A program made the position numbers and the translations under genes. A stretch of 62,532 nucleotides of DNA, counting the filler, from Stramenopiles sp. TOSAG23-3 (Eukaryota): NCBI GenBank assembly GCA_900128585.1. It is 3 parts of 3 records of this genome, joined end to end, with 100 filler letters (N's around TTAATTAATTAA, not from the genome) between each part and the next. Parts side by side here need not be neighbours in the genome. Positions count along the whole stretch, not along the records: positions 41,910 to 62,532 come from LT642371.1; 2 more parts are not named here. One strand, written 5' to 3'. A model generated the notes under the pieces. It did no database searches and had not been told where the DNA came from. It worked only from the letters and a program-made list of their open reading frames with translations. Positions 18,530-62,437 of this stretch are shown here, piece by piece; position 1 is the stretch's first letter; each line of letters starts with the position of its first letter.

Positions 18530-18644
18530 ATTTATGGGCAGGGGAAAAGGAATCTTTTAAACAGCGTATGCGGTGTGACACGATAATATATGAAAGTTAA
18601 CAAATGTTGAAGTTGTGATAATATTTTACAAGTTAAAATTAGGG

Positions 18645-18835
18645 TATGAGGAAGCTAAATTTAATTACTTATTAAATAACAGCCAATTTTCTTGTTTTTA
18701 ATATTTTACAAAGTAATTGATAAATTCTTACGCCAAATAAGCCGCTGTTTACTTGCCAGTTGGAATCTTGACCAGAACTTGGGGAGGATCCGTAATAGGA
18801 GGAGACATTGTTCACAGCCAAATTTTTCTTGTTTA
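18645..18835 (+). repeat. Copy of the dispersed repeat family, including the 26-mer AAATAACAGCCAATTTTCTTGTTTTT (18674-18699)
   Basis: 26-mer is identical to 31877-31902 and to the reverse complement of 56073-56098. AGAACTTGGGGAGGATC.G.AATAGGAGGAGA.ATTGTTC is shared with 54140-54185 (-). Confidence 0.8.
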
Positions 18836-24296: not shown

Positions 24297-24397
24297 GCAA
24301 GCAAAGGCCGTTAAATTTGTAATATATAACAAAAATAAATGAACAATTATCGCGTGTTAAGAAAGTGCCATTATTAATTTATGATATTTTAATTGCT

Positions 24398-24665
24398 TAC
24401 GGGTCTTTTGACATCGACGCAATTCCACGCACCGATTCGGATCATGCATGGAGTACCCGTGAGAATAAATAGTCCAGACTAAGTGACAAGGGTAATATTG
24501 ATTAGTAAAATCTCTGGAGCAGAGATAATTTCGCAGTATATGACGAAGAAATTTTAATTACACATTTTAATAAACACAGGTAGTACATTATGAAGAAATG
24601 TAAACGTTTTTAATTACTTAAAGAACAGACAATTTTCTTGTTTTAACAGACAATTTTCTTGTTTA
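24398..24665 (+). repeat. 5'-truncated copy of the dispersed repeat family
   Basis: TACGGGTCTTTTGACATCGA...CCGATTCGGATCATGCAT...AGACTAAGTGACAAGGGTA...GGAGCAGAGATAA.TTCGCAGTATA is nearly identical to 62273-62420. Ends in two AACAGACAATTTTCTTGTTT copies. Confidence 0.9.
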
Positions 24666-24693: not shown

Positions 24694-27600
24694 TTAGCAT
24701 ATTGACGACACCCACTGGCCAGAAGGAATTATTTCAGGAAGAATCTTGTCTTTGTTTGTCGTCGTCACTGCAACTCGAGGTGACACTGCCTTGGCTGGGA
24801 CTATAGCGTCCGCTTTCCCGTTGGAAGGCCGAGGACTTCGCTGGACATTCCGAGAATATTTTCCCGATCGGGGCGGGCGCCCTCCCCTCGGCGGTGGCGG
24901 GCTTGGCACAAACGGAGTGTTTGCATTCAGCTTCTTGTATGCGTTTCCGACGGAAAACTTCGAAGAGTAGTACTGGGGCTTGCTTGATGCGTCCGTCCAT
25001 ACCTTTTGCGAAGAGCGCAACACGCCAGTCCAGTTCCGGGGGCTTCGTCTCAAGATAAGGTCTCCCTTCTGCTTTCCCTTTCGCGACCGTTTTCTCCTCT
25101 TTCGAATTCTGTCGGACTCCGTTTCGACACCTCGCAGCTGGCGGTAAACGCGCCCACCCCGTTTTACCGGCTCGGTGCGGGGGTTCCCGTCCACGCTCGG
25201 TCCCCCCAAGGACTTGATCAATAGCTTTTGAAGCAGGTCCCGGCGCCTGGGGGACATGATTTTTGGGGTGCTGAAGAGCTTCGTATCATTGCCGTACTCA
25301 CCATCGTCTTGGAACGTTTCGGGAATTTCTTCGCCGGCAACGCTCGCCTGGGGGGTTGCGTTTCTGCTCGCGGCGGCCCTGGCCGATGCTTCGCGCTGGC
25401 GCCTCAGGTCGGTCTGCATTTGTTTTTTCTTCAAATACGCCGCCCGCCTCTTCTCGCGTTCTAAAAGAGGTGATGGCGGGTTCGGGTTGGTCACCACCAC
25501 GCCCGAGCCCGTGATGGCGGACCCCCTCCGGAGATTCGTGGCGCCTAACATGCGCTTTGGTCTTGTAGAGCCACTCATCGGCCGTTTCTCGAAGTAGCTC
25601 TCCCCAGTGTAGTCTTGGTGAATGTTGCTTATGAACTCCGTCAAATCGATGGTGTTGCTCTTGTCTTCGTCGAATTTAGTGAAGATGTCATCCACCTGCT
25701 GCTTCGTCAGGTTGACCCCCAACAGTTTGAGCTGCTTTCCAAAGTCTGCTCGCCCCATTTGAATCTGGGGCTTTTGCTCCGGGTCGACCACGCCCGCTTT
25801 TTGAAAGCGCCGCATCAGCTGGCGCACGGTGTCGCTGCTTTTGCTTGTCCGACAGTCCACCCGCATGCGAATCTGATCCACAATATCGGAGATGGGTGCG
25901 TTTTTAGAAAAAGTCAAGCCGCCGATAAAGGAGGAGTTGTCTTTCCTCCGTTTTTCTGCCTTGCGGCGGCGGGCGGCGATCATCTTTGCGTCCTTCTCCC
26001 GGGACTTTTCCCACCAAGGCTTGCGCGAAAACTCCTCAGGGAGGATTGCGCGCAGGAACTCGTGCATGGAGACCCCCCCGCTTCGGTCGGTGTCGATGTC
26101 GTTGAAGAGTGCCTCCGTTTCCGCCTGGGTCATCATCACGCCCAGGACCGCGATTTGCTCTTGCAAGACCTCGCTTGTCATCTCCTCTTTTTGGCCAAAG
26201 CTCACTTTGCCATCCCCGTGGGACGCGAAGATGTTCCGCACCTTTCGCAGCTGGTCCGAGGGGCGCTTGCTACGCTGGACGATACGGTCGTGAATCAGCC
26301 GCTTGAGGCTCTTCACGGGCCGCTGCACTTTCTGCACGGCCCGCTGGCGAAACTGCTTGCGCGACAGTTTCCTCTTCCGCCGGGCCGTGCTTAGCTTCTG
26401 TGACTCCTCTAAGTCTTGCCGTGCGGACAAGAACGACGATTGCTCGATCTCGTCGGGGAAAATCGAGCGCATGAACTCTTGGATGGATATTTTCCCGTTC
26501 CCGTTGAGGTCAAATTTCTGAAAGATTGCCTTCAGCTGCTTGTCGTGCAGGGTGATGCCCAACTTTTGCAGTTTCTCGTGAAACTCTGTCTCCCCGCACT
26601 CGCCGCCAAAACCGAAGAGGCGCAGTATTTGGCGGGTCTGGTCGGACTGCCGGGAGCTGTACGCCGTGATCTTCTCGCGGACAAGGTTGATGCAGCCCTC
26701 CACCGTCAGGTTGTCCACGGGACCGGCTTGGTAGTACTGTGACCCTTGTTTGACGATCTGCCGCTTCGCGTGCGCCACTTTCTGTTGGTCCCGCATGCTC
26801 TTGATATGCCACGCCTCCTCGGTCACGTCCTCGCCCAGGATGCCGTTCAAGAACTCGATCAGGGAAATGTCCCCGCTCCCGTCCTTGTCGAACTCTTTGA
26901 ACAAAGCCTTCGACTGGGCGTCTGTCATCGACACCCCGAGCATGGCAACGTGCTCCCGAAAGTCTGGCTCGAGCAAGTCGTGCTTCTTCGAGTCGGTCAG
27001 GCCTTTCTTGAAGATGCGGGAGACTTTGCGGACCTGGTCGCTGGACTTTTTCGACAGCTGCTTCACTTTGTCGCTGATCAGCTGCTTGACCTGCCTCGGG
27101 GAGAGCTCGGGCTGTGCAGGCGACCTAAAATTTCGCTGGTAGTCCGCAGCGTTGTTCCGAAACAAGTTCTTCTTGGCCTTGAGGGCCTTGTTCTGGTCTT
27201 CCCGGGCCTGGATGTACCAGGGCTGCTCTTCCCATCCCGACGGGTTGCACTTTTGGAAGAACTCGTTCATGCTGACGGTGCCGCTGCCATCCTCGTCGAC
27301 GTACTCGAAGAAGCGCTTGGCCTCCTTCTCGGACAGGACGATTTCAATCTTTAGCAGCTGGTTCTGCATCTCCTTTGGCCCCAACTCCTTGGACTTTCCC
27401 GAGCCCTTCCCGTAGGCCGCAAATATCCGCCGAATCTTTCGCATCTGGTCCGTGGGCTTGGCCGTAAGCTGGACGATCCGTTCTGCAATCAGCGTTGCGA
27501 TCTGTTTCGGGGTCCGGTTGCTCGAGGCCATGGCCAGCCGGAACGAGTTGGCGTCCGCGGCCTCCCGCCGTTTGCTCCGCTGCGCGGCCTCCTGGTCGCG

Positions 27601-28059
27601 GCGCTTGTCATGCCACGAGTTCCCGCTGGAGTCTTTTGGGATGACCCCGCGCAAAAACTCGGTCAGGGTGATGCCCCCGCTGTTGTCCGCGTCGATTTTG
27701 CGAAAGAGCCCCTTTGCCTGGTCCTCCGTCAGCGTAAACCCTAGCCGCTCGACCAACCGCTTGAAGGTGTGCTTGTTCAACTCCGACGCCCGGCCGAAAA
27801 GGTTGTGTATGCGCCGCTGCTGGTCGCTTGCCCGGGGAGACAGGCCCTCGATCTTGTACTGGATCTTCTTCTGCACCTCGTCCACGGAGAGGTATGGCTG
27901 CGGCGGCGCCCGCTTCGTGGACTTTTGCAATTCCACTTGCGCCTCGATCGCCTCCATGTCGTACCCTTTCCCGTACTCCTTGTCCGGGGTAGGCTCCCGC
28001 TTTCGCAGGATCGAGCCTTCGTTCTGGTGATCCATCGCCATCGCGCGGTCGATTGACAT
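24694..28059 (-). CDS. Multi-EF-hand protein built from six ~130-aa repeats plus a basic tail
   Basis: Six units each with I..KI.....SDQ.R...LF and an EF loop (DADNSGGITLTEF, DEDGSGTVSMNEF, DKDGSGDISLIEF, DLNGNGKISIQEF, DTDRSGGVSMHEF, DEDKSNTIDLTEF). Confidence 0.85.
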   Translation of the reverse strand: MSIDRAMAMDHQNEGSILRKREPTPDKEYGKGYDMEAIEAQVELQKSTKRAPPQPYLSVDEVQKKIQYKIEGLSPRASDQQRRIHNLFGRASELNKHTFKRLVERLGFTLTEDQAKGLFRKIDADNSGGITLTEFLRGVIPKDSSGNSWHDKRRDQEAAQRSKRREAADANSFRLAMASSNRTPKQIATLIAERIVQLTAKPTDQMRKIRRIFAAYGKGSGKSKELGPKEMQNQLLKIEIVLSEKEAKRFFEYVDEDGSGTVSMNEFFQKCNPSGWEEQPWYIQAREDQNKALKAKKNLFRNNAADYQRNFRSPAQPELSPRQVKQLISDKVKQLSKKSSDQVRKVSRIFKKGLTDSKKHDLLEPDFREHVAMLGVSMTDAQSKALFKEFDKDGSGDISLIEFLNGILGEDVTEEAWHIKSMRDQQKVAHAKRQIVKQGSQYYQAGPVDNLTVEGCINLVREKITAYSSRQSDQTRQILRLFGFGGECGETEFHEKLQKLGITLHDKQLKAIFQKFDLNGNGKISIQEFMRSIFPDEIEQSSFLSARQDLEESQKLSTARRKRKLSRKQFRQRAVQKVQRPVKSLKRLIHDRIVQRSKRPSDQLRKVRNIFASHGDGKVSFGQKEEMTSEVLQEQIAVLGVMMTQAETEALFNDIDTDRSGGVSMHEFLRAILPEEFSRKPWWEKSREKDAKMIAARRRKAEKRRKDNSSFIGGLTFSKNAPISDIVDQIRMRVDCRTSKSSDTVRQLMRRFQKAGVVDPEQKPQIQMGRADFGKQLKLLGVNLTKQQVDDIFTKFDEDKSNTIDLTEFISNIHQDYTGESYFEKRPMSGSTRPKRMLGATNLRRGSAITGSGVVVTNPNPPSPLLEREKRRAAYLKKKQMQTDLRRQREASARAAASRNATPQASVAGEEIPETFQDDGEYGNDTKLFSTPKIMSPRRRDLLQKLLIKSLGGPSVDGNPRTEPVKRGGRVYRQLRGVETESDRIRKRRKRSRKGKQKGDLILRRSPRNWTGVLRSSQKVWTDASSKPQYYSSKFSVGNAYKKLNANTPFVPSPPPPRGGRPPRSGKYSRNVQRSPRPSNGKADAIVPAKAVSPRVAVTTTNKDKILPEIIPSGQWVSSIC

Positions 28060-29394
28060 GATGGACTAGTTGCAATCGGCGCCCGCGCGTGTGTGTGCGT
28101 GCGAATAGGAACAACAACCTCTATGCCTAGAGAAAATAGGATGCTGGAACTCTCTCTCTCTCTCGCTCGCTCGTCAATAGTTAGTTTCAAACACTGAATA
28201 ATAAATAGACTCCGAATCAATCCAATTGACTGAAATGAAATCAATGAAGAATTATTAATTGTAAAAGTGATGACCAAACCTTTTTCTTTATTCAATTCAT
28301 TCCTTTATTCATCAATTCCATATAATACATATTTGTTTTTCCTTCTCCTCTCACAACAAACAAACTCTTCTTCATCTCTTGTATAATATTATATGGACTA
28401 ATAATAATATAGAGAGATAGTATTATAATAGATGACTATATTTTTAACACTTTTTTTTAACTTTTTTGCGCGAGATCTTTCTTCTTCTTCTTCTTCTTTA
28501 TATAATATAGAAATACCATTGGTGGTGGGTTATATAATTTGGCGTAACAGATAAAAAATCCACTTTTTTTCAATTAATTTGTATACTGTATACCTGTATA
28601 TTTATGTATTATTGTATATTATAAGTGAACAATATACCGTATTCTTCTTTCTTTCTTTCTTTCTAATAATTTTATTTCATTAACGAAGAAAAGAAGAAGC
28701 AAAAAGCAAAGCGTTTCAATTGAAAAAAAATGGATTTTCTTTACTCTACATGAAATTGTAGTTGTATGAAATTAATTATATAGAATATACTACTGTATCT
28801 TAAATTGAAAAAAAGGTTTAAATAAAATGCTCTATTTAACTATAATTATGACTACTTTTTTAAAACCCTTTTTAATGCAATATAAACCATTTATAATAAT
28901 TAGATAGAGAGAGATAGAGAAGAGACTATAATATGTATTATTATAAGTACATAATATATTATCAATTTATGTAATTTTAGGAACATTTTCATTTTTCATG
29001 AAACGCCCTAACTAATAAAAAATTAGAAGTGTGCAAATGATAGGTGTACAAATATAAATAGTATAGGATTCTTTTGTAATGTATGTGTTAAACGAAAATA
29101 TGATAAAATAATTTGTGATGAGTGAGTGTGAGGAGTGGTGAGATGATGATGATGGATACGCGAGAGAAAAAAAAGAAGAAGAAGAAGAAGGAGAAAAAGA
29201 AGTATTTATTATTATATGTAAGCGCAGTACGATTTCCTTCCATTTGGGTAACAAACGTTTTCTGCCCTGCTTCCGTTTTCGTTTCATTTCGTTTCGAACC
29301 ATAGATGGTCAACGTATTCATTGATTCGTACAGACACAATTACAGTATAGTATATATTGCAGTTAGATTCCAGCCTGTATCCTCATCACCGTAA

Positions 29395-31645
29395 ATGGGG
29401 GCCGGGGCATCCCTGAACATCCCGGAACACTTGAAAGATGACCCAATTATAAAAGAAACGTACGATCGCATTTTGGACGTGTTTGGGAAGTATGACTCCA
29501 GGAAGTACAAACGGCTGTCCCGCGACGACTTTTATAAACTGTGCCAAGATTTTTCGAAACATTTCACGAACGTAAAGGACATTGAGACAGCGTTCACGTA
29601 CTTGGATAAAAACCACGATGCAGAAATATCCCTTGCAGAGTTCAACCGGCTCTGGGAAGGGTTCTCAACGCCGCCGCCGCTCCATTCCATCGAGCAGCGA
29701 ATGGAAGACTTTCGGATCGACGTTGCCAATAAGTACAAGATTGCGTTCGGGCTCTCATTTCGCGAATTTGAACGGGCCGGGCAGCTGGACGAGAAGCAGT
29801 TTAGAACGTGGGGGGCCCTGGACGTGTACCTGTGGCTGATATTTTGCCCCGCCCTGGCCGTCGTCCGGGAGGACCTGGACCGCGGCATGTGGGCGGACGT
29901 GGACGGGGAGTGCCTGCTGGAGCTGACGGAGGGCAGCTTACGGGAGAAGAGAATCAAGGAATACCATACGAAGAAATTCTTGCAGGCCATCGACGTGCAC
30001 TTGAGGAAACCAGACGGGAAGAAGTCCGTCTCCCCCCCACCCATCATCACCCAAGTTCAGGACAGCACCGACGGTTCGATGGCCGAGACGGTCGCCCAGG
30101 GGCCGAGGAATGGGAGCCCGCGGCCCATGCGCATGTCCCCGAGGGGGGACAGCCTGTCCGGGAGCCAGGGGAGCTCGGGGTTTCAGTGGAAGAAGGGCGA
30201 CCTCTTGGGCCAAGGGGCGTACGGGAAAGTGTACGCTGGGCTTGACACGAGGTCGGGGATCATGATGGCTGTGAAGGAGATGACGTTCACCAGGGACAGC
30301 GCGAAGGAGGTGGAGGAGCTCAAGAACGAGATCCGGCTGCTGAGAAAGTTGCAGCACGAGCACATCGTGCAGTACTTTGGCGCGGAGATACCGGCAGAAA
30401 GCGAAGGGTGCGTCATCCACATCTTCACGGAGCTCATGCCCCAAGGCAGCCTCACCCACATGATGAAGAAGTTTGGAAAGTTCTCGGAAGAGATGACCTG
30501 CAACTACACGCGTCAAATGGTCAGCGGCCTGGTCTACTTGCACGACAACAACATTATCCACCGGGACATAAAACCGGCGAACGTCTTGGTGAACGAGAGC
30601 GGGATCGTTAAGCTCGCCGACTTTGGGGCGAGCAAGAAAATGAGCGGGACGGAAACCGTCGCGATCGAGAACACGACGCTGAAAGGCACCCCGTACTTCA
30701 TGGCCCCTGAGGTGCTGATTCAAAAGGGACATGGTAGGAAAGCGGACGTGTGGAGCTTGGGCGCGACGGTCCTGCAACTTATCAGTGGAGACCCGCCGTG
30801 GAAGTCAATGAAGTTTGACTCCGTCGTCCAGCTGATGTGCCACGTCGCCGGCGACGAGACCGCGAAGCCCGAATTGCCGCCAAAGGGGTCAGTGTCGGAA
30901 AAAATGTACAGTTTCCTAGAAGCGTGCTTTACCCGGGACGTCACGAAACGCCCGAACTCGAAGCAGCTGAGCAAGCACAAGTTTCTTACGTCGAACGGCA
31001 AGGAGGGGGGGGGAGATGGCGGAAGACCCGATGAACAACACGTTGGCTAGCATCGATAGGTCGCTGAGCCAAATGGACGAGAGCCAGAACGCAGGGGTAG
31101 AATCCGAAGACGAGGATTTCTTGGACATGTCGCTAAGCGTTGTGGCGGCTGCAGACCCGGACGAAGAGAGCGTAAAGGCCGCCCCGGTTATCCAAACCAG
31201 CAACATTGGGAACAGCGCGGGGGGCGGTGGAAACCCGTTTGGCAACGGCCCAGGGGGGTTCTCCCCAGACACCCCAGGAGCTCAAATTGCGGCCGTGACC
31301 CCCAAAGGCGACGCGGCGGGGGAAGAAACGTTCGAGGGGGAGGAAACGGCGAAAAAAAAGAAGAAGAAGCACCGGAAGAAACGGCCCGGGACACGGTACA
31401 GCGATGACACGGTTGCAGGCATCGAAGAAGGGGGGCAGGCGGGGAATGCTGCGGAAGTGAGCGAATCGGGAAATGCCTACCAAGCCTACGAAGAACGAGC
31501 CATCAGCTCCGTTTACCACCAGCAAAACTTGGAAACCCTGAATGCAGAGAAAGCGGAAGAGGCCGCAAACGCATTGCGAGACGCGGAATATGCAAAGATG
31601 AGAGTGGAGGAAATTAACAAGTTTCAAGCAAGTCAAAGTATTTGA
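29395..31645 (+). CDS. STE11/MEKK-type MAP3K with an N-myristoylation motif, EF-hand pair and SAM-like domain; probable frameshift at G9 (31005-31013) extends the C-terminus
   Basis: MGAGAS; DKNHDAEISLAEF; W..DVYLWL...DGECLLELT; WKKGDLLGQGAYGKVY, AVKE, HRDIKPAN, DFG, GTPYFMAPE. ORF 31016..31645 joins if one G is removed. Confidence 0.85.
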
Positions 31646-31763
31646 AGTCGGTCCCCTATCTTGTTCTTAGTAAAGGCTAATTTATTACTCCATATGCTTG
31701 TAAATACGCTAAACGACAATTGGTACGGTACCAAAGTATGATTAAAAACAAGAGTAAAAATAG

Positions 31764-31903
31764 GATTGAGTCACCTACGAGTGAGATATCGGATGAGGAA
31801 GTTGATTACGGTTCATTTGAAAGCAGTCTTAATCCATCTACTGATTCAGATCATCAATGGAGTACATCTGAGAATGAAATAACAGCCAATTTTCTTGTTT
31901 TTA
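31764..31903 (+). repeat. Copy of the dispersed repeat family (SEISDEEVDYGS module plus terminal 26-mer)
   Basis: ATCGGATGAGGAAGTTGA is shared with 48665 and 62254; 26-mer at 31877-31902. Confidence 0.85.
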
Positions 31904-32242
31904 AAAATAGTATAAATTGATATAAAAAAATGAGAGTTTTTAAAAAACATTCCAACTGGTACCGTGTACAGGTACAGGTATTAATACCTGGTTCCGTACC
32001 TGTTACCGTACCGGTATTATTATATTATTTTTTTTTATTGAGGAAGAAGAAGGAGGTGTTTTCTTTCCCCCCGCGAGGTGTTTTCTTTTTTCTTTCTTTC
32101 CTTCCTTTTCTTTTTTCTTTCTTTCTGTGGATTGTATACTCGAAGTTTCTATGTTAATCGTGGGACTGCGTGTGTTTTTTTTGGGTTATCGCGTTTAGTT
32201 TACTATTATTTTTGTGTATCTTGTTCTGTTTTTGTCATCAAC

Positions 32243-32834: not shown

Positions 32835-35800
32835 TTAACTCCTGCCACGCCCACCACGCCTTCGGCGGCGCTTTCTATTCCGACCGCCGCCTCCTCCTCC
32901 TCCACCGCCGCCACTTTGAAAGAACGAATCGTCGTCGCCCTCCTCGCTGTTGGTTCGTCCCCGTTTTCTATTTCGGTTTCTGGATCGGTCATTTCGTGAG
33001 TTTGCCCTTCCGTTGTCATCCCTCCTTCGCTTACCTTGGCGGTTGTCTGACCATCGTTTTCTCGGCTCAGCCTCGGTGTCTCTATCCTCCCATCGCTTTC
33101 TGGGGGCCGCGTCTTCGCCATGCGAGTCACCTCTCTCTTCCCACCGAGCAGTGCGGCCGCCACCGTTGCCCTCATCCTCCCACCGCTTTGTGGGTTGCGC
33201 GTCGTCGCCATGCGAATCACGCTCTCCCCACCGCTTTTTTGGTTGCGCATCGTCACCGTGCGAGTCACTCCCTCCCCACCGTTTTTTAGGTTGCGCGTCG
33301 TCACTGTGCGAGTCACTCTCTCCCCACCGTTTTTTGGGTTGCGCGTCGTCGCCTTGCGAATCACTCTCTCTCCACCGCTTTTTAGGTTGCGCGTCGTCGC
33401 CTTGCGAATCACTCTCTCCCCATCGCTTTTTAGGTTGCGCATCGTCACCGTGCGAGTCACTCTCTCCCCAACGCTTTGTTGGTTGCGAATCGCCGCCGTG
33501 CGAGTCACTCTCTCCCCACCGCTTTCTGGGTTGCTCGTCGTTGCGTGAGTCTCTACTCTCTTCCCCTCGAGGTGTGCGGTCGGCACCTTTTGTCTGCGAG
33601 TCGCCGTCCTCGATTTTGTCTCCCCCCTCGGAGCCATTCCCTGCCGGTGGTCTTTCTCTCTCGCCCGGGGCTGGTCCCCTGCGGTCCCGATCGAACCGGT
33701 CGTCGAACCGGTCGTCGAACCGATCGTTGCGCCTTTCGTCACGGTCTCTGTCCCTGCCCCAACCGCCTCGCCTGCCGCCTCTCCAACCATCCCTTCCTCC
33801 GTACCCCACACGGTCGTAATTCCCCCGACGGCCGTAGCCGCCCTGGTCGTGCGGGCGCCGCTCGTCGCTTGGGGGGTTCGGGCACACGTCTGCGCGGTGG
33901 CCTATCTGCTGGCAGCGGTAACACCGCATGTTTGGGCAGTTCGCGGCGAGGTGGCCCTCGCGGTCGCACTTGTAACACACCCGGATCTCGGCCGTGCTGT
34001 TGGGGCACTGGGCCGCAATGTGGCCAGTCTCCTGGCACTTGTAGCACTTTCGCTGCGAAAAGACATCGGTCCTCTGCTGTTCGGTGCGACGGTCTTGTGC
34101 CACTTCGCCTTCGGCACGAGGCAACCCACACCCGTACCCGCTTCCTTGAGCAGCCGCCGGGGACCCCCCACAAAACACATTGTCCGCGCGGTTCTTCCAC
34201 CCACACCTGCACCGCCACGGCGTGGCCGAGGGGGGGGCTGCCCCTTCGCCCTGCCCAGGGTCTTGGGGCGAGCGTGAGGGCTGGTGCCGTTCGTTCTGAT
34301 AGGACCGCCCACGGCTCGTGCTTCTCGGGTTCCACGTCGACGCCGGGGCGCCGTACCCGCTGTAGCCTCCGTTCGACGCCGCAGGGGGGGGGGGCGCCGT
34401 AGCCCCCCAGGCTCCCGTTTGACGGCGGAACCACGGCACCGTAGCCTCCCAGGCTCCCGTTGGATGGTGGGGGGGGAGCCCCATACCCGCCGTAACCCGC
34501 GCTTGCCTGCGGGGGGGGCGGGGCCCCATAGCCCCCGAGGCTTTGGTCGGCGGCTGGCGGGGGAGGGTGCAACCCGGCCGGCGCTTGGGGAGGAGGCGAG
34601 GCTTGGCCGTTGCTCGCTTCCCCCTTGGCGCCGCCCCCCACCTCGTTGTCTTTCGGCGCGTCCACCCTGACGGAAAGCATCAAGTCTGCCCCCTCGCGCT
34701 CCTTCGCCAACGCCGCCTCTCGCTCCCTGTCAACGACAGACTTGGCGTCGACCGATTTGAACTGCTCCTTGACCGCCCGGGAGTCTCCGCTGAGCTCGGT
34801 CGCCTTGACGTACTCTGCGACCGCCCGTCGCACGATGTGGTTGGGCTTCAGGCTGGAGGCCTTGATCGGCTTCTTCTCTTCCCCCTCCTCCAAATAGTAC
34901 GTGGGGCAATCCGGGTTCGGGCAGCAGTAATTGTTTTTGAACAGAAAGTCCTTCGCGGGCTGCTTGGAGACGGTCGTGCCGCAGCACGGCATCAGCACTG
35001 CGTCCACGAGGACCTTCTTCGTCAGGGGGCAGCGAAACTGCTCGGGGATGCTTTCGTCTACCTCCGTGGCGGCCGAGTCCCCGGCGGCATCGACCTTCTT
35101 GAAAGGCGCGCTGATGCCCCCCGCCCCGGACGGCGTGGCGCCGGCGTCCTTCCCCGGGGCCTTCCCGTCGTCCTGCCCTTGAGCCCCCGGGGGGGCGGCG
35201 CCCCGGCCGCGGCCGCGACCGCCGCCGCTGACGAAACGCTTCGGGCCCCGCCGTTTCCCCATGGCCGCCCGTGCGGCTTCCCTCGCCGCCCGCATCTCCT
35301 CGACACGGTTCTGCTCTGCCGAAATGGCCAGCTGCGCGATTTTCTTCTCCTCCTCCTCCTTCTTTTGCTGGAGCAGCGCGAGCATGTCGACCTCCTCGTC
35401 GTCGTCGGAGTCGTCGGAGTCGTCCCGCATCCTTGGGTCCAAAACTGCTTTCGGCTTCTCCGCCTCGGCGGAGGGGAGGGTGCTCCCCGCCGACGCGAAC
35501 TCGGCCCCTAGCTGGTGCACGGGTGGGGCCTTGTGGGTGGCCACCATGCCAGTCCCAGCCGTGCCCCCAACGGCCATGATCTCCTCCTTCTTCTGCTTGG
35601 TCCGCAATTCTTCGATGTGTGAGATGATCCCCCCGGTCGGGGCGGCCGGGGCGCGGCGGACGATGACCCTCGTGTTCTTCGGGACGTGGAACTTGTCGTC
35701 GGCAAAGGCCTCTTCGGTGTCCGCGTTGGTGACGATCAGGTCAAAGTCGAGCCCTTTGTCCAGGCTGTTCTGCTCGACGATCGCGATTTTCAAGTCCAAC

Positions 35801-39659: not shown

Positions 39660-39865
39660 AAAATTTCAAAAGTTTTATCATATTTATTAAGAATTATGAA
39701 TATCTCTCTATATTTTGTTTTTTTTTTATATATTATTTTATGTGTGCGTGTTGTTTTTATTAACTCAACCAAAAAGAAAGATGGACCTGGGCAGTTTAAA
39801 ACTCTTCCCTAGTTAGTAAAATGTTGTTCACTCTTCTCTTCCAGTAAAGTTAATTTTTTTAGTAG

Positions 39866-39972
39866 ACAAGAAAATTGGCTGTTATTTAAGTAAGTAAAAT
39901 TAATGTACTGCGAACTGAACTCTAGATTTAGACATTCATTCAAGGTTTACATTCCCTCATGTACTGCGAACT
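39866..39972 (-). repeat. 3'-end copy of the dispersed repeat family
   Basis: Reverse complement reads TGTCTAAATCTAGAGTT.AGTTCGCAGTACATTAATTTTA...AAATAACAGCCAATTTTCTTGT, matching 48837-48880 and the 26-mer. Confidence 0.85.
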
Positions 39973-40404
39973 TATCTTTTCTCTTTTGGTTTTACTTTTA
40001 GAGAATTTTTTTTTTTATACACAGACGACAGTATTATAAAATTTTCTTGTTGTTTTTAAATATTATTTTAAAATTTAATAAAAAATAATATCATACCGCC
40101 GGCGGGGTATATATTAATATTAATTCTCGAGTGAGGTTGCTCCTTGATTGTTGATAGGCCGGACACCATGCCCTGTGCCGTCATGGGTGCATGCACGACG
40201 CGCCGTTGTGGCGAAAATTAATTTGAGCTTTCCTTCACTTGCATAAGATCATCTAGAGATAAATAAAAATTATTTCCTTTGACTGGTTTCGGTCTGTATG
40301 CCCTTTCAAACGATCGGCAAAGGTTCAATTTTATATTGGTGTTAGAGAGATTGCTGCCTTTTGCGTTTTGATCGTAGCTGTGGCGCGCGCGACGTGGGTA
40401 AAGA

Positions 40405-47448: not shown

Positions 47449-48186
47449 ATGTTTCACAGCAGTCTTTTAGGAACGTTCCTCCTCTGGTGTTCCCTTTGCA
47501 CTTCTTCGGTAGCTGGGACCAGACGAACCCCAAGGCCATTTGCATTTGGGGACAGGCTAAAAGTAGAGTGTTACTCGGAGGCATCGTTGGCGTGGAAAGG
47601 CATCCCTCCGTGTATAGAAACAGGGCAACCGATCTCCATATTATTTGGCGTAGACAATTTTTTGCAGTGTGGTATCCCCCTGGAATCTTTTGAAGCAGTG
47701 AAAGTTCGCTTGTTGCCTACGGCAACGCAACAACTCTTGTCTTGCCGTATAGCTTCGAGCAAAAAGGATGGGACCTGGATCCCGTTGCCGCTACCGCTGG
47801 CAGGCACTGCTGCCTCCCCATCTGCAAAAGAACTGCACATACAAACGAAGTATAATGTAGTGATCCACGCATCACAGCGGACGGGAAGCAAGGCTGGGCA
47901 CGTTCTAGGTGCCGCGGTCTATCCGGTATACAACAAAGGCACAAATCAATTTGCAAGGAAGGGGAGCACCCTCTCCTTGCAAGGAAAAATTCGGTGGTTC
48001 CGTCGGGAATCTTTCATTGGCTTTAGCAGCAGATCACGCGATGCAGCAGTAGTGTATTCTGGAATTTCGATCAGTCATCTGTTTGGCTTTACGTCCTTCG
48101 CTGTCGTTCTAGTCGTGTTGGTTGCTGTTTTCTGCTTTGCTCGTGAATCTCAGAAAATCCGCAAAAAGTTCTTTAAGGGAAGGTAG
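47449..48186 (+). CDS. Uncharacterised type-I membrane protein (signal peptide, Cys-containing luminal domain, C-terminal TM, basic tail)
   Basis: 245-aa ATG-initiated ORF with a hydrophobic N-terminus, TM FAVVLVVLVAVFCFA and a KKFFKGR tail. Confidence 0.7.
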   Translation: MFHSSLLGTFLLWCSLCTSSVAGTRRTPRPFAFGDRLKVECYSEASLAWKGIPPCIETGQPISILFGVDNFLQCGIPLESFEAVKVRLLPTATQQLLSCRIASSKKDGTWIPLPLPLAGTAASPSAKELHIQTKYNVVIHASQRTGSKAGHVLGAAVYPVYNKGTNQFARKGSTLSLQGKIRWFRRESFIGFSSRSRDAAVVYSGISISHLFGFTSFAVVLVVLVAVFCFARESQKIRKKFFKGR

Positions 48187-48519
48187 AAAGAGGTTAGTTC
48201 GGGCGCACGCAAATAATCCCGAGGAAGGAAGGGGCAGACGCAAGAGTCCTGCCCTGCACCCATTTTTGACCCGGTTTTTTTAACCAAGGAAATTTTTAGG
48301 TCGTTGAGTTTCTTAAATTTCAAATTAGTCGAATTTGAGATTTTTTTAGAATTTTTAAAAGTTCTTAATTTACTTTTTTTAAATTATATCATAGGAAGGG
48401 GACCAGAGCATCGCCAGCAGACCGAGATCCCAATTAGCCCGCCGCAGAACCACAACCACCACAATGCATACCGAATCCTCACCATCGCAACAGAACTTAC
48501 AAAACGCCGATTATGCCCA

Positions 48520-48950
48520 CCGATCCATACGACCCTCTCCCGACAACTCAACTCACAAATGACAATTCCCTGACTGGTTCACAAGACAGACAACGAGCAC
48601 CTTTAAAACATTCACGCCGCTGCTTGGTTAACCACGCAAGGAATGATTCACCTATGAGTGGGACATCGGATGAGGAAGTTGATTATGGGTCTCCTGACAT
48701 CGACGCAATCACACTGATTCGGATCATGCATGGAGTACACAAAATGGATTAGTCAAGACTAAAGTGGTAAGGGTATATTGATAACGAAAACCACAACAGT
48801 AGAGATCATTTTTTAATTTAATGTAAACCGCAAATTTGTCTAAATCTAGAGTTTTAGTTCGCAGTACATTAATTTTAATTATCATATTCCAATTTTCTTG
48901 TGTTGTTTTTACTTGAAGCTTAAAATAATAGCCAATTTTTCGTTTTTTTA
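48520..48950 (+). repeat. Longest + strand copy of the dispersed repeat family
   Basis: TCCCTGACTGGTT.ACA.GACAGACAACGAGC.CCTTTAAAACATTCACGCCGCTGCTTGG is nearly identical to 62156-62217, followed by the DEEVDY module, the TCGCAGTACA module and a degenerate 26-mer. Confidence 0.9.
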
Positions 48951-49002
48951 ATTAATTCCATGCAAAATTAAAATGAATATTTTTAATAAAAACGTTTTTG
49001 TG

Positions 49003-49105
49003 CGAGATACCGGGTGAAGAATTGGACTACGGTTTGATTGGCATCGTTGGAAATTCAAAAAGTATGTAAGAATTATCAATTCTGATCATGCATGGAGTAC
49101 ACAAA
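49003..49105 (+). repeat. Diverged partial copy of the same repeat family
   Basis: Encodes EIPGEELDYG; contains GATCATGCATGGAGTACACAAA identical to ~48722. Confidence 0.75.
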
Positions 49106-49186
49106 GAGTAATTCTTACAAATAGTGAAGACGAAATGGCAGGAGTAAATTGGTTAAGAAAACCACAGTAGAAATAAATGCGCGGCA

Positions 49187-52156
49187 TCACAGGGCCAGCA
49201 GGATACAAGACAAACAGACACGGCTTTTGAACTCATCTCCACACTTTGTAGTGACTGTTTCTGGGCACGTTCGGCCCGAAGCATTCTTGTAAGAACAGCG
49301 ACCACAGACGACGAGTCCACAATAGAAACAGTGGTATTGGCATATAATGGTCTCTCCCTTGTCAAATCGCCCCCCCCCCCGCATAGGAAACATGGTGGGG
49401 AGATGGAAGCGTTTGCCCAAAAGAGAAGAGATGCCTTGCTGTTAAAAGACTTCTTTTGCCGTGCTAACTCTAACTTTTTTTGCCGAGCGTTGTACACACC
49501 AACCGCCGCATCATAACTGATGGTGTCCATTTCTATCTCCGTGTCATCTATTACTGCACCGTTAGAAACCAGCAATGCCAGCAGCCACGCACCCCATTGC
49601 CCAGTGCTGGTTTCGTAATCTGGTTTTATATTGTCTATCATTCTGGATCCCGACTTGTCCTGGGTATTTATATCCCCTCCGGCATTCGCAAGGATGGCAA
49701 TAGTTGTGACATCGTAGCCCGCAGCCGCATAAAACATAGGCGTTCTCCCATACACGTCCAGGGGATCTATGGTGCATACAGCACCACGGCCACGGGAAGC
49801 CCACGCCGTGGCGATCCCCGCCGTCGCAGGAGTAAACAGCATCAGGCCTAGCACAGGTACATGTTTCTGGACAACCGCAATGTGGAGTGCTGACAACCCA
49901 CCGTGTACAAAATCTTGCTCCAGGCCACCACAGCATTCGGTAAAATTTGCACCGTACATTAGCAGCAGCTTCGTAAAAACATAGTCGCCTCTGTAAACAG
50001 CAACGTGCAGTGGCCTCCACCCATATTTATCTGGCAAACACGCGTCGGCACCAAGCTCAAGGAGCGCCTGGCCAGTCCGTAAGGCTTCGTCCCGAATTTC
50101 CTCTTCCCGGATCTTTACCTGTTCTTCTTCGGCCACAAAATCCTTTATATCTTGCTCTGAAAGCGTTCGGGACCGGTATGTTCTCCTCCGCCCAATCAAT
50201 TCAACGTCCTGTCGAGTGGATATCGACGCCACGAAATGCAAGGGGCTTCTACCAAACTCATTGGTCAAGTTCACACGTGCTCCGTAGGCGAGCAACAACT
50301 TTACCATTTCCTCGCTCCCGGACGCAACGGCTGCGTGCAAAGGCATCCAGTAGTTACTATTGGGGTCAGCGCATACACTTGGAATGGTTCCAAAAACGTC
50401 CCCACCTCCTACGCGGCGGGCAACGACAGAGGCCAGGTCCCGCACCTCGTAGTCTTCATCCCCGACCGCCTTGGCCGCTTCTTCTTTAGCAGCCTCCGCG
50501 CACGAATGCTCCAATTGGGAAATCGATGCGCCTCTGAGGATCGCCGCATGGACGGCATGGATGTCATTGTTTGCAATGGCCGCCTTTAGGAATATTTCCT
50601 GCGACTTTTGAATTTTCTGCTTGAATACTGATCCTTTCGATTTTCTCCCGATAGGTGGACTTCCAGTCGTGGCATCACGAGTTTGACCAGCGAGTTTGTT
50701 CGACAGGTGAATAGATTGGACGAGAAGCCCTATGTCACGACTTTGAGCAATGGAACGAAGGGTCGATCGCCCACCCAATAATTCGGTGCTGTCGCCACGA
50801 GACAATGTCTTGGGCGCCGGGCGAGGGTTCATTCTGCAGTGCTCTTTACTAAACTCAACGGAAACGTTGTGAGGAAGTGAGCACTCCACTGCTGGTCTCG
50901 CATCAACTGCCCACAGCTTTACGCGATCTTCCAAACTGTTCTGCGGCCACGACACTCGCTGCAAGAGCCATTTTCTAGCAACCTGCACGATGTCTGGCAG
51001 AATATTCGTATTTCTTAGCACTTCGTTTTCTACATCAACAGGATTTGTCCCATTCCTAAGGAGCACAGACACGCAGGCTTCACTGTTGGCAACGGCCGCC
51101 AGTTTCAATGCCCCCGTGTCTGCAACGGCACCCAAATCAAGTAGGCACTCGATCGCAAGCACGTTTCGTTCCGAGGCAGCAATGTGGAGAGGGGAGAGCC
51201 CCATGTTGTTCCGCTTGTCGATGGGCAAGTCAAAGGCACAGGCGGCCCTGACCATTGCATGGGAGCACTCGTTGCTCGTTGCACCAAAAGATGCGGTAGC
51301 GATATGTACAATACTGTTTCCGAACATGTCGACCGTGCCAGGTTCACAAACAGCCTTAAAATCGTGCGCAACAACAGTGGCACCTTCTTCAATACCCAAG
51401 AAGTACCGAAAAGCCGCGAAATCGCCGCACATGGCAGCCAAATGCAACGGGCTGACTTTTGCGCAACATTCCGAAAAGAGGATATCATCCTGGTCTATTT
51501 CATTACTATTCACAAGTTCAGTCAGAACGTACACTAGTGGATCACCAAACTTACAAAACAATGGCGTCTCACCTGGCACCTGACTCGAGTTCTTAATGAC
51601 AAGTGTTTCAATAAAGGCTTCCAGATCCTGATCCCTGGGCCATGAATCAAACTGCTCCGTCATTGCTTCAGAGAAGAACTTATCTGAGCTTCCGACAACC
51701 GTTTCAATCAGCTGCGGCAGTGTGCAACCCCCGAAACCACAACCGTGCAGGATCTTTAATAATATTTCTAGCACATATTTGTGACTCTTTGTGGGGGTAT
51801 AGCATGTCTTAAACCCAGGGTAACCATTTGAATATCGAACCAAAGAGTCCAGTGCCTTTGCCACCCCCTCCACTCCCCGCCTGGACGCCCCAAACCAAGT
51901 GTTCAGCCAACGTTTGTACGGGTACGTTTCTCGTTCACGGGGGAACATAACACTGGCGTTGGGTTGTTCATCTTGAGACCCCTCCCCCCCCCCCAATGTT
52001 TATACGAGAAATACGAGCAGACATCTGCCAATACATACGGAAGAGCCGGAGAAATTGGTGTTCACTATATACATTTTCTAAAAGCACATTTATTGTAGGG
52101 CTTCCAGCAATGTCGAAAGCAGAGTCCTCCTCCACGCCGGTGGTGGTCCAACTCAT
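49187..52156 (-). CDS. Ankyrin-repeat protein with a C-terminal FYVE-like Zn finger; two homopolymer frameshifts (51984-51994, 49370-49380)
   Basis: Many G.(S/T)PLH.A ankyrin repeats. ORF 49187..49420 supplies YHCFYCGLVVCGRCS...RVCLSC after CFLC. ORF 51968..52168 supplies the ATG (MSWTTT). Confidence 0.75.
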
Positions 52157-53730: not shown

Positions 53731-53869
53731 ATGCGGTGCATCAGGTAAGATCGACGGACAGGTGCCTTGTAGTTTGCTGCGACTCGTCCAAGACACGAAG
53801 CAGATTTGCCTTTGTAAATAAATACCCGCAATCAGAAACTTCAAAAAAAACCAAATTTTTTATATATAG

Positions 53870-54372
53870 TATGCTTTAAGACTCTCATTTCATTAGTTTT
53901 TTAATACCATTTCAGTTCCAACTCTAAACTTAAAATTCGTTAGTTGTCGATCACTAAAAATATTCAAAAAAGAAAAAAAAAATATATAACATAATATGCT
54001 ATATATTTTGGGTTTAACATAATATGCTTTATCATACTATATAATTTGTTTTTTTAAAACATAATATGCTTTAAAAACAAGAAAAATTGGCTGTTATTTT
54101 ATAGTAGTAATTAAAATTAAAGAAAGAAGAAGGTGTCAGTTCAAGAACAATATCTCCTCCTATTGCAGATCCTCCCCAAGTTCTAAAAGTACACAGCGGC
54201 ATAAATGTTTTAAAGGGGCTCGTTGTCTGTGGTACTGCTCAATGAATTAATGATCGGTATTGAGCTTGATTGCTTTAAGACTCAATTATTACGAATTTCA
54301 GTTCCAACCCTAAACAACCTAAAATGGATTTTTTAATTTGATTTTTTTAATTTCGTTAGTTGTCAATCACTA
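53870..54372 (-). repeat. Minus-strand copy of the dispersed repeat family with a local duplication of its upstream module
   Basis: Reverse complement contains CAGACAACGAGCCCCTTTAAAACATT.ATGCCGCTG, AGAACTTGGGGAGG and the 26-mer (54073-54099). TTTCAGTTCCAAC.CTAAAC...TTCGTTAGTTGTC.ATCACTAA occurs at both ~53910-53957 and ~54297-54372. Confidence 0.85.
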
Positions 54373-54479
54373 AGGAATTGTTTATATTCCAATGAACAAT
54401 TACTACCAAGTGATAATGTTTCTTTTCTTGTTAAAGGTGATCTATACTCAACAAATCGACCCGATTAAAGTCCCTGATA

Positions 54480-54917
54480 ATTTTAAGAGACTTTTGCGAG
54501 TAGATCACTTCTTCGTCAGAGTCACTTGGAGAATCAATCGTCCCTTTATTACCAAAAATCGAACAGCGGCTAGATTTGTTTTTTTATTGCCTGGATCTGT
54601 GCGTCTCTTTTGATGTTTGGGGGGGGTAGATTATCAGCGTCTCTGAAATTTGGTCCAAGTTCCGGAAAACCCGGCCGGGGAAGCACTCGGTTACACTCAG
54701 CGGAGGAAGCTGTAGAATCCATTTCCACATCATCCCTAGAGTTCAAACGGCGGCTAAATTTGTTTTTTGTTTTGCCTGGATCTGTTCGACTCTTGCGATG
54801 TTGGGGGGGATACATTGTCAGCGTCCGTGAAGTTTGGTCCACGTTTTAGAGACTCCGCCAGGTGATTCTCTCGTTTAGACTCATGGGAGTTGTCTGTAGA
54901 ATTCATTTCCACAATAA
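54480..54917 (-). repeat. Degenerate ~183-nt tandem repeat with coding character, distantly related to the dispersed family
   Basis: GCGGCTA.ATTTGTTTTTT...TTGCCTGGATCTGT...TCAGCGTC..TGAA.TTTGGTCCA at ~54566 and ~54750; CTGTAGAAT.CATTTCCACA at ~54710 and ~54894. Confidence 0.85.
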
Positions 54918-55709: not shown

Positions 55710-56072
55710 CTGGGTGTTCTTACAAAAGTATTTGTGCTGAAGATGAAGTAGATAACTAATGATTATCGGGCTTTATCAGCATTAAAAGTGCAATACTTCA
55801 TAGCATATTCTTCTCGTCGGGTGCAAAGAAAAGGAAGATAGAAGTGGTGACTGCGGGACTGTATGTACAAAACGAAAAACAAAAACATTGTACTTGTAAT
55901 GTAATTGCCTATATCAATTGGTATAGTGAAAATAAAATAGTTTGTTAAAATAATGAGTGTTTTCGTCATTTTACCTGCTATTCAATATTATTTTTCGTTA
56001 CACTAACTCGCTGCTCATATATATTTAAAAAAAAAAACATTCATCAGTTTATCTATCGAAATTAAAAAAGTT

Positions 56073-56098
56073 AAAAACAAGAAAATTGGCTGTTATTT
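56073..56098 (-). repeat. Solo terminal 26-mer of the dispersed repeat family
   Basis: AAAAACAAGAAAATTGGCTGTTATTT is the exact reverse complement of 18674-18699. Confidence 0.85.
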
Positions 56099-56422
56099 AA
56101 AAAGTTATAAGAGTACGACCACTGAAATTTCCAATTCGTCCTTTCCTTGCTATGTAATTTGTTTTTGTCCCCTAAAATTTTACTTCCTTCTTGCGGCATT
56201 TACCTCTAAATTATAAAGTAAACGTTTCCATTTGATTGTAAACCACTCAGGTTAATTTCCTTGGCTTGGACGGGCTTCTACGCCCCCCTCCCCGTCGCTT
56301 TTTCGGGATCTTTGCGAATGTGGTGGCAGCTTTCCGGGAACTGAACAGCCCCCCGGGCGTCGAGTCATTATGAACTCGCTGCCCTTTCTAAAGTACTACG
56401 AAGTATTAAATACCGGCACAAT

Positions 56423-60051: not shown

Positions 60052-60785
60052 TTAATTCCTACTTAAAAAAAGAGAGATTTTCCAGATTTGTCCGTCCACC
60101 CCAAACGAGCCTTAACACGAATCCAATATCGGTACTAATTAATCTATTAATAAATATTATTATTGTTATAAATATTTTTTTTCGGTCTTCGTCGACCACC
60201 ATAATTCTTGATGACAGTAGAACGACCAATAATTTTTTTTTATTATAATATTTATTCTATTTTTTTTAAGGACATCATCGGGGACAGTCGTCGGAAAATA
60301 ATAAAGAAATAAAAAAACACCTAAAAAAATCTTCTTACTATCTTATTTTGGATGCTATTAGATGTTATTTTGTTGAGATTATATTTTCGAACAGATTTGC
60401 CTATCTAATATATGCTTATTTACATACTTGTAAAATACTATACACTACAATTGTAAGAAGAAAAAAAAGATTTTGATGTTACTTTTCGTTATCTCTAAGA
60501 GATAAAACAAGTGACAATTGCCTATATAACGGGTTTCTCACGTTTTTTATATTGGCAATGGGTACGTCGATCTTCTTCTCATGAACAACAAAATCAACAA
60601 AGCAATCATCAAATGAAACAAACACAAATGATTCTACCGAACGTTGTTAGTCGAGTAATTCCAGTTTAAATTACTTATTACCACAGTTCCGTACAGGGGT
60701 TAACAAGGGTATGTGTGTGTAGACGTGGCCGCTTGCATTCGTCGTTGGTGGTAAAATATATAATAGAGATTGAATAAGGCTTGCG

Positions 60786-61952
60786 ATGGACCCTTCTGGC
60801 ATACCTTGGCAGAATACGACGAAGCCATTCTTGCATACGCAGGAGGAAGTGATTTACACTTTGGTTCGTATTAGTTCGGGGTTGTCTGCGATTGGGTCGC
60901 TCTTTATTTTAATCACCTGGTTCCTATTTAGCGATTTGCATTTTTTCAGTCGAAAGCTTATTGTATACATCAGTATCACAGACTTGGCAAGTTCCATCAC
61001 TTTCTTTTATGGGACCTTTCTAAACGGGTACCAGGAGGGAACGTCCCCGACGACTGGTTGCATAGTTCAAGGGATGCTGATCCAATTCTTCTACTTGGCT
61101 TCCTACATGTGGACTGGGTGTTTGGCGATGCACCTTTATCAAATTTTGATTAAAAAGGTCGACAACGCAGAACAGTTCGAGAAGTGGTATCATCTTTTCG
61201 CTTGGGGCTTGCCCCTTTCCATTTGCGGATATTTGTTGTACAGGGAGTTGCATGGGGCGTCCATACTGGGAGGGGCAGACAGGGCATGGTGCTGGATTGC
61301 AGATCATAGTTCGCGTAATTTGACATGGGAAGAGAAGGGCGTATTTGAGCAATTTCTCTGCTTTTATGTTCCGCAAGTGCTGGTGTTTGCGGTCAATGCT
61401 TCCCTCTACAGTATCTTGATCCGACAGGTCAAGGGTTCCCAGCTCGGCGACAAGATCAGGAAACGTTTGCTCTGGTACTTGCTGGCATTTTTGTTCGTAG
61501 CAGTGTGGGGGTTGATTCATAGAGTTTACCAGGTATTTATCCCCGACCACAAGCCATCTTATGTCCTCAGTATAGCAGAATCCTTCTTCGGCCCGTTACA
61601 AGGGTTTCTGAATTGCATTGTGTATGGGCTAAGCAAAAAGATCGCAGCGCGATACTGCAAACTCTGGGTGCAGCAGGGAACTGCCCAAGAAAGTTATTAC
61701 TCGTCTCACGCTAGCAGCAACAATGGCTCGTTTGTAATGAACGAAGAGAGCCATGATGGAGATGCCTGCATGGAGCGAGGAAGCTCATTTCGGGCTTCAC
61801 CCCCCATGCTTGTCGATACACAACATCCCCAGTACCATGCACTGCTAAATGCAGCCGTAGGTGGAGGAGAGTACGGCCATTACAGCCCCAGCCCCACGCG
61901 GCAGCAACCGATCATCGCGCCTGTCCCTAGACGACAGCTGGAGGACATATAA
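60786..61952 (+). CDS. Seven-TM GPCR, cAMP-receptor/GCR1-like
   Basis: LS.IGS.FI, KLI.YISI.DL, C..QG...QFF.LAS..WT, YH...WGLP, WCWI, PLQGFLN.IVYG. Confidence 0.9.
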   Translation: MDPSGIPWQNTTKPFLHTQEEVIYTLVRISSGLSAIGSLFILITWFLFSDLHFFSRKLIVYISITDLASSITFFYGTFLNGYQEGTSPTTGCIVQGMLIQFFYLASYMWTGCLAMHLYQILIKKVDNAEQFEKWYHLFAWGLPLSICGYLLYRELHGASILGGADRAWCWIADHSSRNLTWEEKGVFEQFLCFYVPQVLVFAVNASLYSILIRQVKGSQLGDKIRKRLLWYLLAFLFVAVWGLIHRVYQVFIPDHKPSYVLSIAESFFGPLQGFLNCIVYGLSKKIAARYCKLWVQQGTAQESYYSSHASSNNGSFVMNEESHDGDACMERGSSFRASPPMLVDTQHPQYHALLNAAVGGGEYGHYSPSPTRQQPIIAPVPRRQLEDI

Positions 61953-62155: not shown

Positions 62156-62437
62156 TCCCTGACTGGTTTACAGGACAGACAACGAGCGCCTTTAAAACAT
62201 TCACGCCGCTGCTTGGAAAATTACACAATGGCTGATTCATTTATGAGTGTGGCATCGGATGAGGAAGTTGACTACGGGTCTTTTGACATCGATACAATTC
62301 CACACACCGATTCGGATCATGCATAGAGAACAGAGATGAGAATGATAATAAAGACTAAGTGACAAGGGTATTATTGATTTTAGTAAAATCTCAGGAGCAG
62401 AGATAACTTCGCAGTATAAAAGAAGATAAATTTTAAC
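62156..62437 (+). repeat. Copy of the dispersed repeat family downstream of the GPCR
   Basis: Aligns with 48567-48790 and 24398-24560; encodes SLTGLQDRQRAPLKHSRRCL...SDEEVDYGSFDID. Confidence 0.9.

Follow-up and report, generated by a model that had tools for sequence, protein, structure and literature searches.

The window analysed here is a stretch of 62,532 nucleotides, three contig parts joined end to end, from Stramenopiles sp. TOSAG23-3. The host genome assembly spans 28.4 Mb in 7088 contigs. The window comes from an intron-poor, gene-dense eukaryote, and Pfam identifies flagellar genes in it (IFT54/MIP-T3, kinesin). Named relatives of the DHX8 helicase are mostly from oomycetes and diatoms at 72-75% identity, and the public runs containing the region are marine or aquatic wherever they are labelled. 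We infer that the host is an uncultured marine stramenopile. A tandem repeat lies within the zinc-knuckle part of a DWNN/RBBP6-like gene (33078-33590), and a protein kinase with an N-terminal EF-hand pair (29395-31050) adjoins a gene with many EF-hands (24694-28065).

Two genes end face to face near position 48500. According to the gene caller and Pfam scan, the left gene (47512-48186, plus strand) has no Pfam family and the right gene (49153-51984, minus strand) encodes an ankyrin-repeat protein. Between them lies a 5'-truncated repeat copy of what we call family A (48388-48950, plus strand), with an nhmmer match at 48388-48807 (393 bits) and 79% identity over 425 bp to the long copy L051. 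The stop of its Ser/Asp-rich ORF tail is at about 48760-48762 and is followed by AGTTCGCAGTA (48856-48866), a terminal motif (48926-48948) and a T run. An older and more diverged family A fragment follows on the same strand (48995-49170; nhmmer 47.5 bits, E 4e-15). The initial annotation started the repeat at 48520; the nhmmer and motif map moves the start of the main copy to about 48388 and extends the second copy to 49170. Translating the end of the minus-strand ankyrin-repeat ORF shows that its final 5 codons and stop (49153-49170, 18 nt) fall inside the old fragment. The predicted C-terminus of this protein is supplied by element DNA.

Repeat copies in the window and the genome

Related modules had been described in nine spacers spread over the three contigs and both strands. 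Self-BLAST and the nhmmer/motif map agree with that description, and the motifs gave 0 matches in 10 local shuffles. The repeats are real but form two families, A and B, and not one. The module GGTTGGAACTGAAAT, listed as the first of a shared order, belongs instead to the family B 3' UTR. Within the window it occurs only at 16590 (plus), 53909 (minus) and 54295 (minus), always in that UTR.

A family B 3' UTR fragment with GGTTGGAACTGAAAT lies in a tandem spacer (16565-16614, plus strand, nhmmer 29 bits). An A-type terminal stub of about 67 nt occupies a convergent spacer (18619-18711, plus strand) with a 13-bp target site duplication (TSD; 18619-18631 and 18699-18711), and a variant-C fragment follows at about 18775-18830. 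Another convergent spacer holds a family A stub identified by nhmmer (109 bits) and the terminal motif (24393-24644, plus strand). Two further family A stubs are in tandem spacers. One has an internal deletion and 9-bp direct repeats (31755-31910, plus strand; repeats 31755-31763 and 31902-31910). The other, from the nhmmer/motif map, is a 3' UTR stub that lies antisense to the IFT54/MIP-T3 gene upstream of it (39863-39996, minus strand).

The remaining copies are on the third contig. A family B 3' end stub (53866-53955, minus strand; nhmmer 21 bits plus motif) is followed by a composite of a 40-nt family A body piece, a variant-C 3' UTR and an A-type terminus (54072-54233, minus strand; nhmmer/motif map). 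Beyond it is a family B copy of about 650 bp with a Ser-rich ORF tail and 3' UTR (54269-54916, minus strand; nhmmer 481 and 125 bits), for which there are 118 first-look candidates genome-wide. A micro-copy of about 25 nt consists of the terminus only (56065-56107, minus strand; 9-bp direct repeats 56099-56107 and 56065-56073). Behind a GPCR-like gene (60777-61952) lies a family A stub that lacks the terminal motif (62156-62416, plus strand, nhmmer 233 bits). An Rfam scan of the window gave 0 matches.

Alignment of the 30 best genomic family A copies confirmed the variable 5' truncation and mostly common 3' end noted earlier. Successive genome searches, beginning at the 3' end, returned 622 candidates, then 18 candidates (21 matches), 13, 8, 5 and 2. 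The first of these searches used 48500-48950; 40 of its 622 first-look candidates were scored and gave 65 matches. Most A-type ends with enough flank (71 of 81) reach 134 nt or less. Extrapolation from 560 kb of long contigs gives about 2,300 A-type and about 560 B ends per genome.

The repeats lead to a reverse transcriptase ORF

No transposase had been seen, and there is none; yet the modules from CAGACAACGAGC to GACTAA are the last codons of an ORF. This long degenerate ORF leads to a reverse transcriptase (RT). Longer family A copies translate as a knuckle, restriction-like endonuclease (RLE) motifs, a Ser-rich tail and a stop, followed by a 3' UTR of about 100-200 nt. Terminal inverted repeats (TIRs) were not seen; the 5' ends are variable and the element is linked to the RT. 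The description as a non-autonomous or decayed element was right as to decay, abundance and position behind gene 3' ends. The stubs are not an unrecognisable non-autonomous element, however, but the ends of protein-coding LINEs of at least two families.

The RT was reached through overlaps between natural copies: L084/L083 with L079 (46 bp at 100% and 121 bp at 88%), L079 with L064 (77 bp, 99%), L064 with L051 (185 bp, 77%) and L051 with the window copy (425 bp, 79%). The family A pieces tile residues 1-1081 of the 1087-aa JGI metagenomic protein P0004 in order, with the best segments at 24-52% identity. Because the pieces are colinear with P0004, this is an independent check on the overlap chain. 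The 5' walk enters the thumb and then the RT, with RPIAIGETLRR, DAKNAFNS, QQGDPIG and FADD. It ended at a contig edge inside the RT, with no N-terminus found and no full-length copy assembled; a metagenome scan gave 3 loci, none of which provided the 5' end.

The family A RT piece P0005 has 20 longer homologues, 18 of which carry Pfam RVT_1, and it scores 137 bits on a profile of 19 homologues built without our own sequences. The profile of the RT set matches R2 proteins first in the PDB (E 3e-46) and then L1. Queried by itself, P0005 matches nothing in Pfam or the PDB. The RT protein P0025, also used singly, brings up no R2 in the PDB at E<=10, and alignment A2 has no match there. A third family, D (L187 and L188, 83-86% identical to P0004), has an RT that matches RVT_1 (E 8e-7). 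Two further 3' UTR variants end in the A terminus. An RVT_1 search of the genome returned 8 other RTs (L069-L076), none of this element's family. From their motifs we take three to be Ty3/Gypsy-like, with long open frames, and five to be DIRS-like.

A loose CCHC-like knuckle pattern C-terminal to the RT was present in 6 of 6 copies examined. Its spacing is its own (C-X9-C or C-X13-C), and PHN/PHK stands in place of RHN/D. The RLE order QAD/QPD..DVHF..E..K-x-x-Y was read by eye, and profile scores for the knuckle/RLE part are near noise. The predicted product comprises RT, thumb, CCHC-like knuckle and RLE. The RT-region pieces of family A are 93-95% identical and their frames are open, which suggests that the family was active recently. 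On a public sediment-metagenome contig (L191:7431-8915) a bacterial oxidoreductase-like gene is joined in frame, mid-gene, to the RT of this element at a short common stretch. The junction is probably a misassembly.

The C-terminal extension of families B and D

A genome search with P0004 gave 44 matches, including pieces outside family A at 53-86% identity. The natural B copy L186 contains the linker, knuckle and RLE and then an Ulp1-like and OTU-like region. It overlaps L179 and L148, which extend to the B 3' end (window 54269-54916). An Ulp1/CE-clan-like C-terminal domain is found in families B and D (L186:1-861 minus, L179:901-1899, L188), and in B the OTU-like region follows it.

A single-sequence fold of the B extension (pLDDT 40) was discarded. 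The model used for the Ulp1-like region (pLDDT 67) aligns best with NEDP1 in VIA-align (Z 7.9, rmsd 3.2, 111 aligned) and then with SENP1/Ulp1; its Foldseek rows are all at E>=1e-3. A conserved NNCG motif, presumably the catalytic Cys word of Ulp1, lies about 160 residues upstream of an HWY His motif. This reversed Cys/His order hints at a circular permutation. The OTU-like region has Atlas scores of 0.93-0.94, with 24 of 30 matches in the OTU set. Pfam OTU matched 5 of 30 homologues below cut-off and gave no match on the B copy itself.

In the available part of PMC4640811, NeSL and Utopia-1_TSP carry an Ulp1-like protease that is N-terminal, and the accessible text of PMC2836005 reports OTU or Ulp1 domains in Ginger and Helitron proteins. 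Our literature search, which covered subscription papers and Repbase Reports thinly, found no non-LTR element with a C-terminal Ulp1 and OTU pair.

Copies lie mostly in convergent spacers

The copies were originally said to lie in spacers with a gene 3' end, never in divergent ones. The window supports this: copies occupy 4 of its 6 convergent spacers, 4 of the 7 tandem ones and none of the 8 that are divergent (the 62156 copy, which is behind the last gene, is excluded). The enrichment check suggested at the time was run on 20 whole contigs taken by consecutive number (C6510-C6529, 560 kb). Genes were called with a codon model, and gene models are ORF-based. The called strands agree with those of the Pfam-supported window genes that were called, and a zinc-knuckle ORF overlapping the DWNN gene was dropped. 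With a cleaned library, copies occupied 36 of the 68 convergent spacers, 7 of the 68 tandem ones and none of the 62 that are divergent (convergent vs divergent, Fisher p 3e-13). None lies inside a called ORF in these 560 kb. With looser motifs a single divergent spacer gains a B end, and a degenerate A end was noticed by eye, giving 0-2 of 62 for the divergent class.

Convergent spacers are the smallest class (24.7 kb vs 74.0 kb divergent) and hold 46 ends, against 8 in 51.9 kb of tandem and 0 in 74.0 kb of divergent DNA. Two independent 3' ends would give an occupancy of 19.5%, which the observed 36/68 exceeds (p 9e-10). In tandem spacers the distance from the stop to the copy is 12-342 bp, and 7 copies are sense and 4 antisense. 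In the 37 kb of mid-divergent DNA that lies over 300 bp from either start, the tandem rate predicts 9.3 ends and 0 were found (P 9e-5, or 0.005 if 2 ends are counted). The target-like word TTWWAW is no rarer in divergent spacers (30 vs 26 per kb). Sequence preference does not explain the convergent bias.

The numbers of convergent spacers with successive counts of ends (36/21/9/1/1) follow the Poisson expectation (34.6/23.4/7.9/1.8/0.3). Strong self-targeting was rejected as the main cause on these counts, despite 3 nested B copies. The 35:14 antisense excess in convergent spacers was set aside as geometric, the element 3' end being nearer to the gene it points at.

The sampled contigs contain other repeats as well. 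An unrelated MITE-like repeat of about 435 bp has short inverted ends and about 77% identity between copies (C6511:9325-9761 (G000; L085-L144 set); C6515:27590-28013; C6510:28300-28691), and one copy is in a divergent spacer. Many divergent spacers of C6510-C6529 have long TTC/AAG tracts, which, judged by eye, the short convergent spacers lack as a class.

3' ends, target site duplications and insertion

The A-type terminus is mostly CTTG and 3-5 T, usually followed by 1-2 A (87 distinct ends). As first reported, there is no long poly(A). The element finishes in a short T run, part of which may be derived from the target. A short telomere-like TTAGGG stretch breaks one element copy (L044, about 80-120), and TTAGGG is also present in the family B 3' UTR and in that of one A-type variant.

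TSDs were scored as direct repeats of at least 8 matched bases that start right after the T run and end at the 5' junction. Ends were taken from search loci and unselected contigs, and those with N or short flanks were dropped. TSDs of 8-13 bp occur at 13 of the 77 A ends, where permutation gave a mean of 1.8 (max 6), and at 5 of the 28 B ends, where it gave 0.4 (max 3). Two of the 13 A cases may be tandem duplications of the terminus itself, and 3 B copies with TSDs are nested in A ends. The insertion flanks are unrelated, and their target consensus amounts to no more than a loose AT-rich T|A step. The terminal 30-mer was considered as a host target site and rejected; micro-copies have their own TSDs and share no alternative upstream sequence. 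Some copies are internal pieces or have inverted or tandem termini, with filler-like junctions.

The chemistry of target-primed reverse transcription (TPRT) is established and is the basis for the insertion steps proposed here. The endonuclease would nick a loose AT-rich T|A step in a staggered manner, with about 10-13 bp between the nicks. The U-rich RNA end would pair with an A-ending primer, a mirror image of the pairing between poly(A) and T in L1. Reverse transcription would usually halt after 20-130 nt. In the portion of PMC6007223 available, the TSD starts of RTE elements are linked to 3' repeats. TPRT alone does not account for the internal and inverted copies with filler-like junctions, and these point to an origin of some copies at breaks or through template jumps.

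Discussion

We interpret the repeats in the nine spacers as copies made by TPRT that were 5'-truncated and dead on arrival, derived from at least two families of CRE-like non-LTR retrotransposons. We give this reading a probability of roughly 0.9. The link to an ORF with RT and RLE, the constant 3' end from which matches drop steeply towards 5', the TSDs of a subset of copies and the convergent bias have all been demonstrated in these data. The label CRE-like comes from the RT signature words, which we take to look CRE-like, and from the homologues; it does not file the element as a CRE member.

The cause of the location bias is a matter of plausible readings, with targeting and selection inseparable in these data. 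There is an even chance that the element prefers to insert into transcription-termination DNA between convergent genes and that selection then sharpens the pattern. Targeting is favoured because even tiny stubs are absent from mid-divergent DNA. Convergent regions in yeast are positively supercoiled and cohesin-bound, according to the accessible part of PMC8360656, and by analogy such DNA is a possible cue for insertion. A more specific proposal, which we consider only tentatively, is that an RLE lineage dropped its sequence target, uses transcription geometry and inserts at head-to-head termination as a safe harbour, where the Ulp1/OTU-like domains of B could act on SUMO or ubiquitin. Family A is without these domains and shows the same convergent bias, which counts against a role for them in siting. 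A search that covered subscription papers and Repbase Reports thinly found no case of a retroelement aimed at convergent 3' ends.

Selection without targeting is a serious competitor, to which we assign somewhat less than even odds. The element would insert anywhere that is AT-rich, and purifying selection in a compact genome would clear it from ORFs and from spacers that hold promoters. Selection is favoured because the ranking convergent > tandem > divergent follows promoter number and because bacterial IS elements offer a precedent: the same pattern in 68 of 116 bacterial genomes is ascribed to selection in the available text of PMC2942039. The target word is not special, and the Poisson counts in convergent spacers are those that neutral accumulation would yield. 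However, selection would have to purge even AT-rich inserts of 22-60 nt from 37 kb of mid-divergent DNA, while tandem spacers retain copies 259-356 bp from the next start and one divergent spacer tolerates the 435-bp MITE-like repeat.

Endonuclease-independent capture is improbable as the source of most copies. Here cDNA or RNA ends would be caught at double-strand breaks, which would cluster at the meeting points of convergent transcripts. Capture would fit internal fragments that lack the 3' end, inverted or tandem termini and short filler-like junction repeats, as well as the 64 of 77 A ends at which our test detected no TSD. The copies are 70-90% diverged, however, so old TSDs would have decayed; those that are detected fall within a narrow 8-13 bp and are well above chance in both families, and the fixed 3' end is consistent with priming on the RNA end.

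It is very unlikely that the host has come to use the terminal 26-30-mer as a signal for termination, polyadenylation or mRNA stability. The copies do lie close behind stop codons (12-342 bp in tandem spacers), and the partial source available on Leishmania SIDERs provides a precedent. Yet copies are missing from 32 of the 68 convergent and 61 of the 68 tandem spacers, orientation in tandem spacers is mixed (7 sense to 4 antisense), micro-copies bear their own TSDs and the Rfam scan had no match. The suggestion of a co-opted 3' regulatory element is unsupported, most gene ends being without a copy. A DNA transposon, MITE or Helitron end is the least credible origin: the OTU-like domain of B recalls some Helitron and Ginger proteins (PMC2836005, in the part available), but the RT overlap chain contradicts it, as does L186, which joins the RLE to the Ulp1/OTU-like region and overlaps copies reaching the B 3' end, and so do the variable TSDs, the variable 5' ends and the lack of any visible TIRs.

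Half of the convergent spacers hold datable stubs, which makes targeting versus selection testable from population metagenomes. If targeting is true, it offers a route to aim an R2-like enzyme at gene-safe sites. If selection acts alone, inserts as short as 25 bp are removed near promoters in this plankton. Annotators should mask these motifs as repeats rather than take them for terminator signals.

Comparison with known systems

The element has a non-LTR retrotransposon's properties and works like a LINE of the RLE type. Members of the CRE group (CRE1/2, SLACS, CZAR, Cnl1, MoTeR, FoTeR) likewise have an RT followed by a CCHC-like knuckle and an RLE. They also have many 5'-truncated copies and nest in earlier copies (for Cnl1, the available part of 10.1101/2022.06.10.495668). 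Unlike them, the element described here is not tied to spliced-leader genes, telomeres or another repeat target, and it has a T-run end, its own knuckle spacing and a long C-terminal extension after the RLE. The REL motif of CRE/SLACS is given as C[X1-3]C[X7-8]H[X3-4]C[X9-10]RHD/N...R/KPD...D/E in the accessible portion of PMC12857005. In its strict form it was found in 0 of 6 own copies, but also in 0 of 20 homologues; the knuckle plus RHD/N part is present in 8 of 19 homologues and in no own copy. Insertion in the CRE clade is mostly site-specific in a multicopy target, as far as the available text of PMC4640811 goes. No such target was found here, the flanks being unrelated.

The best PDB matches of the element's family profile are R2 proteins, and the candidate Ulp1-like domain recalls the Ulp1-like protease that NeSL and Utopia-1_TSP carry (PMC4640811, same portion). 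In contrast to NeSL/Utopia, the Ulp1-like domain here is C-terminal, with the OTU-like region after it and the Cys motif before the His motif. R2, NeSL and Utopia also differ from this element in that it has no fixed target sequence.

EhLINE/EhSINE of Entamoeba are the nearest behavioural parallel. In the available parts of PMC1635306 and PMC3118788, these are untargeted non-LTR elements that are intergenic only, lie near T-rich stretches and create TSDs. The word 'convergent' is absent from the accessible text of PMC3118788, and the short copies here are truncated LINE ends, not SINEs. Leishmania SIDER1/2, in the partial source available, are likewise abundant truncated retroposon remnants behind genes. 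However, SIDERs are extinct and act in 3' UTRs, whereas this element has open RT pieces at 93-95% identity and its co-option is unsupported.

Retroelement safe harbours are known in compact genomes, where they are repeats or tRNA genes. Bacterial IS elements share the convergent excess and divergent deficit (PMC2942039, in part) but are a different class of element, and in the present case the bias is almost complete, with 0-2 of 62 divergent spacers occupied. The DNA transposons T1 and Hermes prefer promoters and keep out of convergent spacers, in the available part of 10.1101/2022.06.10.495668. The near-total confinement to convergent 3' ends is the reverse of that promoter bias. The element is of an ordinary kind; what is unusual is its near-exclusive build-up where two genes end face to face.
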